Source: an uncultured Trueperaceae bacterium
GTDB lineage: Bacteria > Deinococcota > Deinococci > Deinococcales > Trueperaceae
NCBI GenBank assembly: GCA_963839375.1
Contig: CAWIUY010000008.1
Coordinates: forward strand, 1-64,000
DNA length: 64,000 nt
Reading direction: 5' to 3'
A program made the position numbers and the translations under genes. Of the stretch, positions 1,296 to 38,413 are shown piece by piece; within the stretch, counting starts at the first letter, position 1; every line of letters begins with the position of its first letter. Below the pieces are notes generated by a model. It was not told where the DNA came from. It did not search any database and was given only the letters and a program-made list of their open reading frames with translations.

Positions 1296-3785
<2,490 letters not shown>

Positions 3786-3792
3786 GCCGCCG

Positions 3793-4733
3793 ATGACGGA
3801 GGGGCGTCCGGCGATCGTCCTCGACTGCGATCCCGGCCACGACGACGCGCTCGCGATCGCGGTGGCGGGCGTGCACACGGACCTCCTCGGCATCACCACG
3901 GTGGCCGGGAACGTCCCGCTCGACCTGACCACCCGCAACGCCCGGGCGATGGTGGAGGTGTTGGGCCTCGACGTGCCCGTCCACCGGGGCAGCCGGCGAC
4001 CCCTGGTGGCCGAGCCGCGCACGGCGGAGTTCATCCACGGCGCCTCGGGGCTCGACGGGCCCACGCTGCCGACCCCCACGCGCGACCTCGCCTCGGAGGA
4101 CGCCGTCGGGTTCCTGGTCGACACGGTGCGCGCCCGGCCCGGCGAGGTCTGGATCGTCGCCACCGGCCCGCTCACGAACGTCGCCCTGGCGCTGCGCACG
4201 GCGCCCGACGTGGCCGAGAAGGTCGCCGGGATCGCGCTGATGGGGGGCGGCGTGCCGTTCGGCAACGTCACCCCTTCGGCCGAGTTCAACGTGCTCGTCG
4301 ATCCGGAGGCCGCCGACATCGTGTTCCGCAGCGGCGCGCGGATCGTCATGGCCGGCCTCAACGTGACCCACCAGTGGATGATCGGTGCGCCGGTGGTGGA
4401 ACGCCTGCGCGCGGCACGGCGGTCGGGTGGCCGGCGTTCTGCGCCGACCTGCTCACCTTCTACGGCGAGGCCTACGCGCGCGCGTTCTCGGGCGTGGCCG
4501 AGGGGCCCTTGCACGATCCGGTGGCCGTCCTGGCCCTCACGCACCCGCACCTGCTCCAGACGCAGCGGTACCACGTGGTCGTCGAGCTCACGGGCACCCA
4601 CACGCGTGGCATGACGGTGGCCGACCTGCGCGGCGTGCAGCAGGGCGCCCCTGCCAACGTCGACGTCCTCACCCGCATCGACGCGGCGGCGGCGACCGAG
4701 GTGTTGATCGAAGCCCTCACCTCGTACGGCTAG
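3793..4733 (+). pseudogene. inosine-uridine preferring nucleoside hydrolase (IunH family), single frameshift near 4420-4435
   Basis: N-terminus ...VLDCDPGHDDALAIAVA... in ORF 3793..4614; conserved C-terminus (WPAFCADLLTFYGEAY...HDPVAVLALTHPHLL...) continues in ORF 4374..4733 in another frame. Confidence 0.6.
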
Positions 4734-4774: not shown

Positions 4775-5464
4775 ATGCCAGCGGTGGTCGAGTTCCAGCA
4801 CGTCACGAAGACCTACGCCCGCACGCACACCCACGCGTTGCGGAACGTCGATTTCCGGATCCGCAAGGGCGAGTTCGTGTACATCACGGGCCATTCGGGG
4901 GCCGGCAAGAGCACCTTGTTGTCGCTCGTGCTGCGCCGGACCGTGCCCTCCGAGGGCGCGGTCGCCATCGCCGGCCAGGACCTCGCCAAGCTGCGAGAGG
5001 GCCAGTTGCCGCTGTTGCGGCGCCGCATCGGCATGGTGTTCCAGGACCATCGGCTGCTGCCCAAGCTGTCGGCGACCGACAACCTGACCTTCGCCCTGCG
5101 CGCCACGGGCGCCAGCGGTCAGCTCGAGCAGAAGGCGCTGGGCGCCCTGCGGCTGGTCGGCTTGGCGCACAAGCGCAAGGCCTTCCCCATCGAGCTCTCG
5201 TTGGGCGAACAGCAACGCGTCGCCATCGCGCGCGCGCTGGTCACCAACCCGCCCCTGCTGCTCTGCGACGAACCGACCGGCAACCTCGACCCCGACACCA
5301 GCTGGGAGATCCTGGAGCTGCTCGCCGACGTCAACATCAAGGGCACCACGGTCATCGTCGCCACCCACTCGCGCGACCTGGTCGACGCCATGAAGCGCCG
5401 CACCCTGGTGCTCCGCAACGGCGAACTCGTCCGCGACGACGACCGCGGCGGCTACTCGCTGTAA
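4775..5464 (+). CDS. ftsE: cell division ATP-binding protein FtsE (ABC ATPase)
   Basis: Walker A GHSGAGKST, Q-loop, signature LSLGEQQRVAIARAL, Walker B LLLCDEPTGNLD; ATG at 4775 within ORF 4385..5464; no ftsX follows. Confidence 0.85.
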   Translation: MPAVVEFQHVTKTYARTHTHALRNVDFRIRKGEFVYITGHSGAGKSTLLSLVLRRTVPSEGAVAIAGQDLAKLREGQLPLLRRRIGMVFQDHRLLPKLSATDNLTFALRATGASGQLEQKALGALRLVGLAHKRKAFPIELSLGEQQRVAIARALVTNPPLLLCDEPTGNLDPDTSWEILELLADVNIKGTTVIVATHSRDLVDAMKRRTLVLRNGELVRDDDRGGYSL

Positions 5465-5536
5465 TCGCCTGGCCCCCGCGGCCCCAGGTCCCCCACACGG
5501 TCCCGAGCGTCCCGACGCCCACCGGCACGGGCACGG

Positions 5537-5575
5537 CGGTTTCTAGCGTCGCGCCTTTGGCGACGCTAGAAACCG
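5537..5575. terminator. 16-bp perfect inverted repeat hairpin between convergent ftsE and phosphoesterase genes, followed by a second 7-bp hairpin (5579-5600)
   Basis: CGGTTTCTAGCGTCGC-gcctttg-GCGACGCTAGAAACCG seen directly; no canonical U-tract. Confidence 0.5.
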
Positions 5576-5602
5576 CAGGTGTCGCGTCTTCCAGCGACAC
5601 AC

Positions 5603-6352
5603 CTAGACCTGCGAGATCGAGTAGTCCAGCCGGTCTTCCGAGAGGATCATCTCGACGAACTGACGGTGCGCGAGCGCGTCGATCATCGCGAAGCCGTGGT
5701 CCTTGTCGAGGTAGACGCCTTCCTTCATGACCGTGTGGCCGTAGACACCGAAGCGGTGGCCGGCGTCGCGGACCAGCTCGGGCTTCTCGTACCACCAGGT
5801 CTTGGTGTCGGGGTCGTGATAGAAGAAATCGTCGAAGTACTGCATGCCGGGCGTCGGCCCGGCGTGCGCGAAGTGGACGCCGTGGTGGACGACCTGACGC
5901 GGGAACGACACCAGCCACGCCTTCAGGTCGTCGGGCAGCTCGACGCCGCCGCGCTCGCCGCAGAACTCGTCGTGTTTCAGGCCGCCGCGCGTGCCGAGCT
6001 CGTAGTTGTGCAGCACCGCCGCCTCGTCGTGGTTGCCCAGGATCACCTGCAGGTGGCCGTTGGCCTTCTCCACGAAGTCCTTGAACCGGTACAGCTCGCG
6101 GATCTGCGCCTTGGCGGCGCGGCGCAGGTGGTCGGGGTCGACGGGGTCGTAGGTCTCGGCACCGACGGCGACCGCGTACGCACGCTCGTCCTTGTAGTGC
6201 ACCAGGTCGCCGACGCACACCACCTCGTAGCGGCCCGACAGCACGGCGTCCGTCGGCTCGTATGTCGGCGTCGCCACGGCCGCCGCGCGCAACACCCGCC
6301 ACAACTCCGCCCACATGCCATGCACGTCACCGATCGCGACGACCTTGATCAC
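5603..6352 (-). CDS. metallophosphoesterase, PPP family (ApaH/PrpE-like Ser/Thr phosphatase or diadenosine tetraphosphatase-like)
   Basis: GDVHG ... GDLV ... GNHDE ... motif order typical of calcineurin-like phosphoesterases; start overlaps upstream gene stop by 4 nt. Confidence 0.75.
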   Translation of the reverse strand: MIKVVAIGDVHGMWAELWRVLRAAAVATPTYEPTDAVLSGRYEVVCVGDLVHYKDERAYAVAVGAETYDPVDPDHLRRAAKAQIRELYRFKDFVEKANGHLQVILGNHDEAAVLHNYELGTRGGLKHDEFCGERGGVELPDDLKAWLVSFPRQVVHHGVHFAHAGPTPGMQYFDDFFYHDPDTKTWWYEKPELVRDAGHRFGVYGHTVMKEGVYLDKDHGFAMIDALAHRQFVEMILSEDRLDYSISQV

Positions 6353-34191: not shown

Positions 34192-37100
34192 TCATCCGCA
34201 CTTGCTGAAGCCGCACGACTCGCACTTCATGCAGCCCTCTTCGAACCGCAGCGGCGCGCCGCAATCGGGGCAGCCTTTGCCGCGCTGCAGGACGTTCTCG
34301 ACACCGGCGGTCTCGAGTGCGACGGCGATCAGGTCGGCGCGGGAGGCCACCAAGCGCCCCTCGTAGGTGCCGTACATGCCGCCGTTGATGCCGCGGAGCG
34401 TCTTGACGACCGCCTCCGCCGGCACGCCGTACTGCAGCGCGATCGACACGACGCGGCCCAGCGCCTCGGAATCGGCGTTCGCTTCGTCGCCTGCCTTGCC
34501 GCTGGTGATGAAGACCTCCACCGGCAGACCGTCTTGTTTGTTGACCGTGACGTAGAAGCCGCGCTTCTCGCCGTCGGGCAGCGTCAGCTTCACGGCGTCG
34601 GTGAAACCGGTGAGCCGCAGCGGACGGTCGAACAGCGGCTCGCTGGGGAGGCGCTCGACGATCTGGCGACGCGTGGGTCCCGGTTGCGCCGAGGTCGCGT
34701 CGACCTTCGGCTCGGGGTTCGTGTTCGAAGTCGGTTCCACGTCGGCCTTCTTCCCCGTGCTCGTCGACAGCACCTGGAACTGTCGCGATCCGTCGCGGTA
34801 GACGGTGATGCCCTTGCAACCCGTGGCGAACGCGAGGCTGTAGGCGTCGTAGACGTCGGCCACGCTCGCCTCGTTCGGCAGGTTGATCGTCTTGGAGATC
34901 GAGTTCGCCACCATGGCGCCGCCCTCGTCGAAGGCGCTCTGGACCGTGCCCTGCATCAGGACGTGGTCGCGCGGTGAGATGTCGTGGGCGCAGACGAGGA
35001 CCGCGCGCACGTCGTCGGGGATGAAGGCAAGGCCCTGCACGCTGCCGTGCGCGTCCTGCACCGCTTGGACGACCTTGGCCCAGTCCCACGCGTCGCCGGA
35101 GCGGTAGTCGGGATGGGGCGGATGACGGTCGAGCAGTTCCTGGAACAGCGGTGCGATGATCGCGGCGTAGTCGGTGCCGATCTTGCGGTAGATGAACGGC
35201 GCGAAGATCGGCTCGACCCCCGACGAGACGCCCATCAGCATGCTCGTGGTGCCCGTCGGCGCGACGGTGAGCATCGCGACGTTGCGGCGCCCCTCCGCCA
35301 GCGCGGACTCGTGGAACCCGGGGAACGCGCCGCGCTCCTCGGCCAGCGCAGAGCTCGCCTCGGTGGCGGCCTCGCGCAGGTGGGTGATCATCGCGTGCAC
35401 CGCCCGCCGGCCCTCGTCGCTGTCGTAGCGGAAGCCCATCCGGATGAGCGCGTCCGCCAGCCCCATGATCCCGAGGCCCAATCGGCGCAGGTAATGGCTC
35501 ATCTCGCGGTTGTCCTCGAGCGCGAACTTGTTGACCTCGAGCACGTTGTCCAGGAAGCGGATCGTGGTCCGCACGTCGGCGCGGAAAGCGTCGGCGTCGA
35601 AGCCCTCGAGCCCCACCGCTTCCCGTTGGACGTAGGCAGCGAGGTTGATGGCGCCGAGGTCGCAGGGTTCGCCGGGAAAGAGCGGGATTTCGCCGCAGTT
35701 GATGAGCGACGAAGTCCATTTGCGATGAACGCGTGAGCCACGGGCTCCGTCATGTCGAAGACCGGCTCGACGCCGTCGGGGATGACGTTGGTCGACACGT
35801 GGTCTCGAAGCGCTGCGCGTACGACGGGCGCTGCTTGGCGTCGAGAGGGCTCTTCGACCCTGCGTTGCTTGGCCCGACGTCAGGAAGCCGATCTGCTCGA
35901 TGAACAGGTCACGGTGTCCGCTTGGCCAGCAGCAACTCGTACTGGGCGCGCACATGCGATACTCGTTGAGGCCGCCGCGGCCGTCCGGCAGGTCGCTTCA
36001 CCCGAGGCGCCGCCCGGTATAGCGTGGATGACGATCACCAGACCGAAGTTGGCGAGCAACAGTTGAACGTCTGGGAGGAGACTCGGCGAGGAGCTGGGCG
36101 AGCCGAACCGGCACGCTCTTCTTGCCTGGACTCGCCGTGCACGGACTCCGTCGGCCGTCGAAGAGGCCCTGGAGGAAGCCGACAGAACGGCTTCGCGCGG
36201 CGCTCAAGATGGCGTCGGTAACGCGCTTCGCACCGGGTCTGCACGTCGAAGGCCTCGAGGTTCGCCAAGACGGCGATGACAACGTGTCCGAAGCCAACCT
36301 GATCTGACTCAGCGTGCGCCTGTTCGACTGCCACAGAACCGACTCGATGAACCATGCCGATGCGCGCGTTAGAGCCTCATGGTCCGCGCGCTCGAGACGA
36401 GATGCCGGCACTGCTCGTCGCCTGATGAACCGTCGCCGACGAGCAGACGCCATGGGAGCACGGTACGGTCTAGAACGTGGCCATCGCCCACGAGCATGCG
36501 GCGAACAGTCGCAACGTCCGGTCCTCGGACGCGATTGCCGGCTCCTGACCGAGGCGGGCGCGCCGCGGTGCGTCGTGCAGGCGCGACCTAAAATCGTACC
36601 GTCGCCCGCAGCTTCGCCCGCTTCGAACAGCACTCCGTCTCGAGACGGTTACGAGTTCGTGCCGAACCACCCGGGTATGGAGCCGGTGATTCGCGCGTCA
36701 GAACGCAGTTCGAAACCAGCTTCGTCGTGGCGCGGAACACCCGCACGCACCGGACCTTGAACACCGTGACGGAAGAAACCCTGGCGTCTCGAGCGGGAAG
36801 CCGATGCCGTCCGATCAACGGCGCAGAGGTCGCGACTCGAAGAGTTCGGCGACCGTGCCGCGCGCCTGCGGTGGGTCATGACCCAGGTAGTCGGCAGGTG
36901 ACGCACGGGTTCGTGGCCTTGATGTCCCCCAACGACGCCCGCATCGGGTTGAACTCGTTGATGCGGTCCACGTAGATCAGGCCCGGCTCGCCCGTCTGCC
37001 AGGCGTGCTGGGCGATCTCCCAGAGGACGCCGCCCGGGCCGTCGGCCTGCGCCTGCTCCATGAAGTCGTCGGTCACGAGCACCGAGATGTTGAACGTGCT

Positions 37101-38180
37101 GATGTCGCCCTCGGCCTGCTCGCGCTCGAGGTCCTTCGAGGTGATGAAGTCGTGGACGTCGGGGTGAGTGATCGAGATCGTCGCCATCCCCGCGCCACGC
37201 CTCGTCCCGCCTTGCCTGATCACGCGCAGCGTGGGCGAGAAGACGTACCGCAGCGTCGCCACCGGTCCCGCGTGCGCCGCGCCGCCCAAAGCCGCCCAAC
37301 GGGCGAAGCTGTCGAAGACCTCCACGGCGAACGACGACGGCCCGCTCGACGTGCCGCCCGAGCCGTTGACGGGCGTCCCCTCGGCGCGCAGCGAGCTCAG
37401 GTCGAGGATCAGGTCGTCGCCCGCGAGCAGCGTCCGGACGACCTGCGCGGCCGCGGCCCAGATGCGCTCGACCGAGTCGCCCACCTGGGTCACGGGGATG
37501 CCGGGCGGGGTGTCGTGGTACTCGACGAAGCGCGCCGCGTGGTAGCCACGCGTGGTGTAGGTGCCGTGCACGAGGTCGAGGAAGGTGCCGTCGCGCACCT
37601 TCTCGTAGTCGGCATGACCGGGCGTGATCGTGAGGAACAGACGGCCCACCCGCCCTGCGAAGGCGCGCTTGGGCGGGAGTGGGTCGAGGTTGAGACCGTT
37701 GCCGCCGCCCACCTTGGTGACCACGGCCAGCTTGGTGGCCAGGTGGAGGACCCAGTCGTCGGTGCCCTCGGTCTCGGGGCGACCGTCCTGGACGAAGCAG
37801 TTGAGCACGTTGCCGTGGTTGGTGGCGGCGCCGGCCAGGACCCGTCCACCGGGGCAGAAGCGCTTGCCCACCATCAGGTCGAAGAAGCGGTCGGCTTGCG
37901 CGACGCGCAGCTCGGCCGGCTCGGGCTTCGCGACCCAATCGGCCACGCGTCGGAACATGCCCAGCAGGTCGCCGTCCCCGTCCAGGAAGTACTGCCGCTT
38001 GGCGATCGACACCGCGTGCTGGTCGAACGCGGCGAGGGCTTCGGTGCTGGGATTGGGAACGACGTCGGCCACGCTGGGCACCCCTTTTCGCGCGTACGAG
38101 CCCGGGAGGGTGGGGCCTCCGGGGCTCAGGTTCGCTCGGTCGAGTACTACATCTGGTACGTATCGATCTCCTACATACAA
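34192..38180 (-). pseudogene. nrdJ: class II adenosylcobalamin-dependent ribonucleotide reductase NrdJ, split at the NPC|GE active-site motif by a 1204-bp intein-like insertion with disrupted frame
   Basis: N-extein (36906..~38081) ...SIAKRQYF...VGKRFCPGGRVLAGAATN...GDIKATNP; C-extein (34192..35697) CGEIPLFPGEPCDLGAINL...GCPDCGAPLRFEEGCMKCESCG; exteins are in different frames, with stop codons between them; start probably GTG ~38081/38072 rather than TTG 38180. Confidence 0.8.
35698..36901 (-). mobile_element. intein-like insertion in nrdJ (intein block F/G motif and LAGLIDADG-like motif present; several frame breaks)
   Basis: lower GC than its flanks; one frame encodes ...PDGVEPVFDMTEPVAHAFIANGL (intein C-terminal splice motif) ending 1 nt out of register with N|CGE; another encodes GFLQGLFDG (LAGLIDADG-like); 4-nt TGCG (gene sense strand) repeated at both junctions. 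Confidence 0.6.
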
Positions 38181-38413
38181 GTCTCAGTGCACGGTCGATG
38201 CGATGTTCGCCACAAACCCGGCGTGTCCCGCGGACCGGGGATCGAGCGCGCTTCGCGAACGCGACGTAACGGCGATCCTAGCACGGGTACCAGATGTGGT
38301 GCTCGGAGTCACCACGCTCGCTAGCCATGGTATCTAGAGCGTCCTGGACGTGCTCCCTCGCAGCGGGACGCGAGGGGTCGCGTCCAGGACGCACGGCACG
38401 AATCGGGCCGTCT

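Follow-up and report, generated by a model that had tools for sequence, protein, structure and literature searches.

This report concerns nrdJ, the gene for a class II ribonucleotide reductase (RNR), in a stretch of 64,000 nucleotides (nt) from an uncultured bacterium (assembly GCA_963839375.1, contig CAWIUY010000008.1; hereafter the window) that a genome scan of species representatives places in the Trueperaceae. The gene lies on the minus strand and is split in two: the last base of its N-terminal half, ending in KATNP, is 36906, and the first base of its C-terminal half, beginning with CGEIPL, is 35697. Our main finding is that the insert between the two halves (35698..36905, minus strand) is, judged by homology, a class-1 intein of an ordinary kind that carries a LAGLIDADG homing-endonuclease domain and sits directly before the catalytic cysteine of the enzyme, and that its broken reading frame is most probably a local sequence-quality artefact over an intact intein rather than a biological feature. 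An original prediction, made from the letters of the window alone, had already seen an intein-like element here and had left the choice between a decayed intein that inactivates nrdJ and an intact one obscured by indel errors.

The N-terminal half, or N-extein (36906..38072, minus strand), comprises 389 codons from a GTG start at 38072, with GAAAAGGGG before the start, ends in GDIKATNP, and matches the Pfam families Ribonuc_red_lgN, Ribonuc_red_lgC, and RNR-II_ins_dom. As recorded, it is part of a longer open reading frame (ORF) at 36876..38180 (minus strand), whose tail, read across the junction, is GDIKATNP-CVTCRLPGS followed by a stop. The C-extein (34192..35697, minus strand) starts with CGEIPLFPGEPC, before which its ORF has an N residue, and runs for 501 codons and a stop at 34192; it also matches Ribonuc_red_lgC and, in addition, TSCPD, and it ends in a Cys-rich tail. 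When the exteins are joined, the product scores 530.7 bits on the model TIGR02504 NrdJ_Z (cutoff 399.95), which passes the class II equivalog threshold, and matches the NrdJ of Thermotoga maritima with an E value of 4e-64. Joining ATNP to CGEIPL also regains the NPCGE active-site motif, which aligns with TNPCGEIGL of 1xjk. By these homologies the halves are contiguous NrdJ exteins of one class II (adenosylcobalamin) RNR gene split at its catalytic motif, as predicted, and not two unrelated genes, an outcome that the original prediction had also envisaged. In the alignment with T. maritima NrdJ (PDB 1xje/1xjk), KATNPCGEIPL of the window lies opposite INSTNPCGEIGL, which puts the junction directly before C322 of that chain, a residue that we take to be the thiyl-radical cysteine; the insertion is thus located at the catalytic cysteine. 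The T. maritima protein is without an intein and shorter than that of the window, which has the TSCPD domain and the Cys-rich C-terminal tail.

The insert as recorded measures 1208 nt, against 1095 nt in intact relatives. Because 1208 is 2 mod 3, the two halves of nrdJ stand in different frames; stops are present in all three frames, and the insert offers no uninterrupted ORF in frame with both exteins, a failure that we attribute to sequence error. Its GC content (0.655) is lower than that of the exteins (0.69-0.70) and of the window (0.72), which is a real but modest drop. The periodicity of GC at third codon positions (GC3), which reaches 0.93-1.0 in the exteins, collapses in the insert over the longest such stretch in the window, and in a window-wide GC3 segmentation, in which 94% fell into coherent coding segments, the nrdJ insert is the biggest gap. 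The differing frames, the lower GC, the stops in every frame, and a TGCG repeated at both junctions had all been noticed in the original prediction, and all of them hold. The gap of 1204 bp given there refers to the same interval, but the full insert is 1208 nt, since the smaller figure omits the shared TGCG. These four bases are a Cys codon plus G at each junction (TGC GTC at the intein start and TGC GGC at the C-extein start); they are not a target-site duplication, and the empty allele of the nearest relative (L001, see below) overlaps by the same 4 nt.

The identity of the insert emerges from a frameshift-aware alignment of its 1208 nt with a profile of seven intact inteins of 365 amino acids from the same site. 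The corrected translation covers 365/365 positions, 227 of them identical to the consensus, has no in-frame stop, and carries block A, block B, two LAGLIDADG motifs, and block F/G in order. Block A (36864..36905, minus strand) reads C1-V-T-(A)-D-T-W-V-M-T-H and fits CVTADTWV(M/Q)TH, which is invariant in relatives. Its nucleophilic Cys codon, TGC at 36903-36905, follows ATNP directly, and the residues CVT are as in relatives; the first inserted base comes about 10 nt into the intein, and an apparent A4C change arises because a T is inserted before GCC. Block B, with its TxxH signature (36671..36717, minus strand; GFELRLTRDHRL), includes LTRDHRL, pieced together from three raw frames, in which T63, D65, H66, and R67 correspond to invariant columns in the alignment of intact relatives. 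The first LAGLIDADG motif (36472..36522, minus strand; GWLFGMLVGDGTF) reads GMLVGDGT, and the second (36140..36186, minus strand; GFLQGLFDADGS) reads GLFDADGS and contains two single-base insertions; the LAGLIDADG-like segment GFLQGLFDG, recognised from the start, aligns with this second motif of intact relatives. Blocks F/G (35698..35774, minus strand) consist of VFDMTEPVAHAFIANG-LVAHN, after which comes the Cys at position +1 of the C-extein, and VFDMTEPVAHAFIANG aligns with block F/G of intact relatives. Here two single-base insertions (CTTC and CATC) have to be removed to obtain the terminal His-Asn and the Cys (ANG-LVAHN/CGE), and relatives end in VHAFDANGI(V/L)AHN/CGE. The C-terminal splice motif of the original prediction is therefore present, but what had been seen as a one-base offset in an A-run is in fact these two separate insertions.

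Profile matches depend on the correction of the frame. The corrected protein matches PF14528 at 62.3 bits (cutoff 22.5) over residues 211-304, while it stays below the cutoffs of PF14890 Intein_splicing (27.4 bits against 35.8) and TIGR01445 (22.5 bits against 24.5). An intact relative (L010) passes PF14890 with 40.7 bits and the TIGR01445 and TIGR01443 models with 26.5 and 25.9 bits. The three raw frames of the insert match no Pfam family even at E<=10, and plain tblastn with an intact intein finds two weak pieces only on it. The absence of any intein match in any frame had been proposed as grounds for abandoning the intein; this is what the raw frames give, yet matches return once the frame is corrected, and the test was too strict. 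No Rfam family matched between 33500 and 39000 on either strand at E<=1, and there is therefore no intron or riboswitch.

The site is well populated in related organisms. Uninterrupted inteins of 1095 nt (365 codons) lie between TNP and CGE in seven genomes (L010, L011, L013, L014, L015, L021, and L022), and an uninterrupted one of 1059 nt occupies the same site in L018, which brings the related Trueperaceae genomes with an intact intein to eight. These inteins, together with that of L081 and others in metagenomes, share with the window the insertion point (TNP/C...HN/CGE), the start CVTADTWV, block B, the two LAGLIDADG motifs, and the end AHAF(D/I)ANG...AHN, and their amino-acid identity to the corrected window intein is 58-60%. 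The difference is that they are uninterrupted, at 1095 nt, whereas the window copy measures 1208 nt, is interspersed with about 65 short insertions, and runs into stops in every frame. A metagenome scan with the alignment of these inteins found >469 confirmed relatives, and all of the loci inspected (33 of 80 returned) hold intact inteins of 364-380 amino acids at TNP/C...HN/C[GA]E; over the eight genomes and these loci together, the lengths range over 353-380 amino acids. By protein search, the same intein, with PF14528 and PF14890, occurs in NrdJ of Desulfobacteraceae, cyanobacteria, archaea, and others. No near-identical intact allele was found: the protein search gave at best 42% (62% for a fragment) and the metagenome scan at best 60%, and substitution errors are therefore inseparable from real divergence in what follows.

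Both the element and its insertion point are already well known, as these intact same-site copies, the bnrdE intein of Bacillus phage SPbeta, and the literature (PMC4760082) make clear. The SPbeta (SPBc2) intein (NC_001884.1, 122225-123379) interrupts the homologous active-site motif (KFSNL/CVTGETL...FNGIVTGN/CSEVL), begins with CVT, has a LAGLIDADG-type endonuclease domain, and aligns over its full length with the Trueperaceae intein. It differs in that its host protein is the class Ib NrdE and not the class II NrdJ, in its low identity (25%), in its length (385 amino acids), and in being intact. The window intein also matches positions 929/941-1241, and the C-extein positions 1405-1575, of the model for an archaeal-type intein-containing NrdJ (NF006207 / PRK08332, 1684 positions), which agrees with a homologous intein in that model at this position or close to it; the window gene itself falls outside the NF006207 equivalog, since it scores 61-78 bits against a cutoff of 2400. 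The intein belongs to a widespread family whose members interrupt RNR large subunits at the active-site motif N-[PL]/C-[GSA]-E, and among bacterial proteins RNR ranks second in intein richness (PMC4760082).

On either side of the interruption in nrdJ, the nearest relative, L001, matches the window collinearly at 85-94% DNA identity, and its site is empty: it joins window position 36902 directly to 35697. The N-extein has 90.8% DNA identity to L001 up to 36902, and the C-extein 94.4% DNA and 98.8% amino-acid identity. The L001 site is a candidate empty target, in which the amino acids at the junction are the same and the 30 nt on either side differ by 1 and 4 bases. Because the nearest relative lacks the intein, the presence/absence polymorphism in this lineage is real.

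How badly the frame is broken depends on how the alignment is scored. The best path has 309 clean codons, 26 insertions of one base (+1), 28 of two bases (+2), 11 extra codons, and 2 one-base deletions, a net gain of 113 nt that is exactly 1208 minus 1095. Raising the frameshift penalty to -10, -15, and -20 leaves 36, 15, and 13 frame changes, respectively, almost all insertions, and all 13 at -20 are insertions. We take about 65 as an upper estimate and 13 as a floor, because intact longer inteins (e.g., that of L090) also give spurious events. The original prediction of an intact intein of about 400 amino acids, recoverable by 3-4 single-base corrections, was off on both counts: the intein has 365 amino acids, and at least 13 frame changes, more likely 55-65, have to be repaired. 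The events extend from nt 10-17 to nt 1205 of the 1208 and so reach both splice junctions; the distances between them follow a roughly exponential distribution, with a higher density in the first 670 nt. The inserted bases that can be resolved (C31, G24, T22, A16) have a GC content of 59%, compared with about 0.9 for GC3 and 0.70 for GC overall; only 7/20 resolvable single insertions extend a neighbouring base, and 0/11 inserted triplets repeat an adjacent triplet. Given this composition and the rarity of neighbour repeats, the insertions are not homopolymer errors, slippage duplications, or third-position alleles. Of the two alternatives in the original prediction, an intact intein under indel errors is much better supported than decay, but a homopolymer origin of the errors is not supported.

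The contrast between the insert and its flanks bears on genuine decay, in which the intein would be truly frameshifted, nrdJ a pseudogene, and the supply of deoxynucleoside triphosphates left to another RNR class elsewhere. We consider this unlikely. In its favour are the stops in every frame and the raw frames without a Pfam match; the corrected sequence also has an elevated proportion of nonsynonymous differences (pN), lowered GC3, and has lost 15% of the invariant positions, and a same-site intein on an independent contig (L080) carries four frameshifts. However, a truly broken intein makes a pseudogene of nrdJ, since a frameshifted intein abolishes the host protein, and the exteins of a dead gene should decay along with it. 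They have not: against 13-64 frame changes in the 1208 nt of the insert there are 0 frameshifts in 2670 nt of exteins, and the chance of all 13 events of the floor estimate falling in the insert is (1208/3878)^13, or about 3e-7. Compared with L001, the ratio of nonsynonymous to synonymous substitution rates (dN/dS) is 0.07 in the N-extein (dS 0.41) and 0.04 in the C-extein (dS 0.16), ratios by which nrdJ is under strong purifying selection along this lineage. The sharp difference in dS across the intein site (0.41 over 36906-38072 against 0.16 over 34195-35697) is an observation in its own right, which could reflect recombination or co-conversion beside a homing site.

The events themselves are also unlike those of a decaying gene. 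They are nearly all short insertions (net +113 nt), the opposite of the deletional bias of small prokaryotic indels, which amounts to tenfold or more by total length in most groups (PMC2817411). Few of them extend the neighbouring base, no inserted triplet repeats the adjacent one, the frameshift-aware alignment shows no large deletions and a preserved motif order, and after correction no in-frame stop is left. Furthermore, so many indels would normally bring near-saturating substitutions, and yet the proportion of synonymous differences (pS) between the corrected intein and its relatives (0.55-0.68) is about that between intact clades (0.50-0.66). The marks of a neutral pseudogene, namely gene-wide disruptions, deletion bias, and relaxed dN/dS, are absent here.

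While the pattern is unlike neutral decay, it fits a local error, from uncorrected reads or gap filling, over a mobile element that is polymorphic. The edges of the noisy patch coincide with the element that is absent from L001, and the surrounding sequence is clean. On this explanation most of the sampled population would lack the segment or carry a divergent version of it, and its sequence would have come from one or a few single-molecule reads that were never corrected, or would have missed polishing, while a full-coverage consensus was reached for the flanks. Possible routes include long-read gap filling between accurate contigs that ended at the branch point between intein-containing and intein-free alleles, or failed polishing because most reads are without the segment. 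PMC8812927 describes residual errors after polishing where short-read alignment is unreliable, e.g., in repeats; our extension of that observation from repeats to a polymorphic segment is by analogy. In the organism there would then most likely be an intact 365-codon intein ORF in frame with both exteins. Translation of the precursor would continue across the intein, the acyl shift and the transesterification would fall to Cys1 and to the +1 Cys, which later becomes the thiyl-radical cysteine, the terminal His-Asn would cyclise, and the mature NrdJ would recover its TNPCGEI motif. The endonuclease domain may cut intein-less alleles such as that of L001, by which the element would spread. Both splicing and homing of the window intein are ascribed to it from homology.

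Several findings weigh against an artefact. First, the ratio of insertions to deletions is more extreme than expected of the raw reads of any platform, with the caveat that deletions adjoining insertions would be absorbed as mismatches in the alignment. Second, the pN of the corrected intein to its relatives is 0.30, compared with 0.19-0.22 among intact clades, the GC3 of its clean codons is 0.81 instead of about 0.90, and it keeps 110/130 otherwise invariant positions. These deviations stem in part from mis-parsing around insertions; another part may be due to mismatch errors, to insertion-deletion pairs that escape notice, or to genuine change. Third, there is the independent contig L080 from a relative (JGI 3300076002, Ga0645779_01139, 167 kb), whose same-site intein (4954-6050, 1097 nt) has four frameshifts, with breaks near locus positions 4987/8, 5463, 5542, and 5909, and is called as three ORFs, although the exteins, an intein at the other site, and all neighbouring genes are intact. 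These breaks fit an artefact of the same sort with a lower rate of errors, yet they could also hint at something in the biology of the element.

Three further explanations survive less well. A technical variant of the artefact, in which the recorded insert is a chimeric consensus (a "union") that merges two co-assembled intein alleles and spells out both variants wherever they differ, appears improbable to us. Two alleles of about 90% identity would produce an excess of roughly the size seen here (about 113 nt), several 4-mers look like a codon plus an alternative third base (GTGC, TTCT, CATC, and CGCA), and related strains do vary in intein alleles and in intein presence. However, differences between alleles would be expected mostly at GC-rich third positions (GC3 of about 0.9), whereas the inserted bases are 59% GC and 41% A/T, and insertions of 2 and 3 nt are as common as single ones. 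Very improbable, in turn, is the notion that the recorded sequence is correct and that short non-templated insertions are strewn over the selfish element by a mutational process that leaves the essential gene around it untouched. Candidates would be, for instance, a host process directed at intein DNA, or a defective minority allele that persists beside an intein-free one, and the four frameshifts of L080 would represent a weaker form of the phenomenon. That the insert is not an intein at all, but a group I/II intron, an insertion sequence (IS) element, some other insertion, or a natural split gene or split intein, is hardly conceivable: although the halves are separate ORFs as recorded, an in-frame ATG lies at 35955 upstream of the C-extein, and split nrdJ genes are known elsewhere, e.g., in Thermus phage phiYS40 (PMC3653736), the Rfam search was empty, the insert is collinear codon by codon with 365-amino-acid inteins that have exact NP/C...HN/C junctions, the collinear alignment shows no transposase or inverted-repeat signature (with no separate search for them), and the reading as a split gene or split intein fails since, with frame breaks from about the fourth codon of the intein onwards, no usable N-terminal intein fragment remains.

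Some additional observations concern nrdJ and its inteins. The Cys-rich tail of NrdJ after the TSCPD domain (34192-34290, minus strand; CPDCGAPLRFEEGCMKCESCGFSKCG) is zinc-ribbon-like, has a weak match to IBR (E 0.045), and is conserved in L001. In the purH-nrdJ intergenic region, upstream of the nrdJ start at 38072, there are two exact inverted copies of CYACATCTGGTAC, at 38147-38159 on the plus strand and 38287-38299 on the minus strand, with a degenerate third copy, CTACATACAAG, nearby. Allowing for <=2 mismatches, the pattern has 5 matches in the window against 0.66 expected, a number reached in 0/100 shuffles. The copies look like operator sites and are possibly NrdR boxes. A second LAGLIDADG intein of about 433-435 amino acids is found in the same gene at RQGG/C...HN/TRRGAGM in L009 (4871-6175), L073 (4280-5578), and L080 (about 3421-4653), and both the window and L001 are without it. 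Such patchy occurrence of both nrdJ inteins among close relatives is typical for mobile inteins. One of the genomes with the same intein as the window, L013 (DATHSP010000016.1, a 3.3-kb contig), is labelled as a Thermoleophilia metagenome-assembled genome, but its nrdJ is Trueperaceae-like (82% amino-acid identity), and the contig is probably mis-binned. Finally, P0018, an ORF of 335 amino acids with LAGLIDADG similarity, was considered as a further broken copy and rejected, as it belongs to an unrelated locus beside an IS21 element at a contig end.

In biological terms this adds little, for the family is known, knowledge of its insertion point goes back to the SPbeta bnrdE intein, and hundreds of intact copies from the same site exist in metagenomes. 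It does, however, call for caution, since a mobile element that is polymorphic in a population can attract a patch of uncorrected sequence, which makes an essential gene resemble a pseudogene. Such a noisy patch defeats profile searches with hidden Markov models in single frames, so that automatic annotation would wrongly report the nrdJ of this genome as split or missing.

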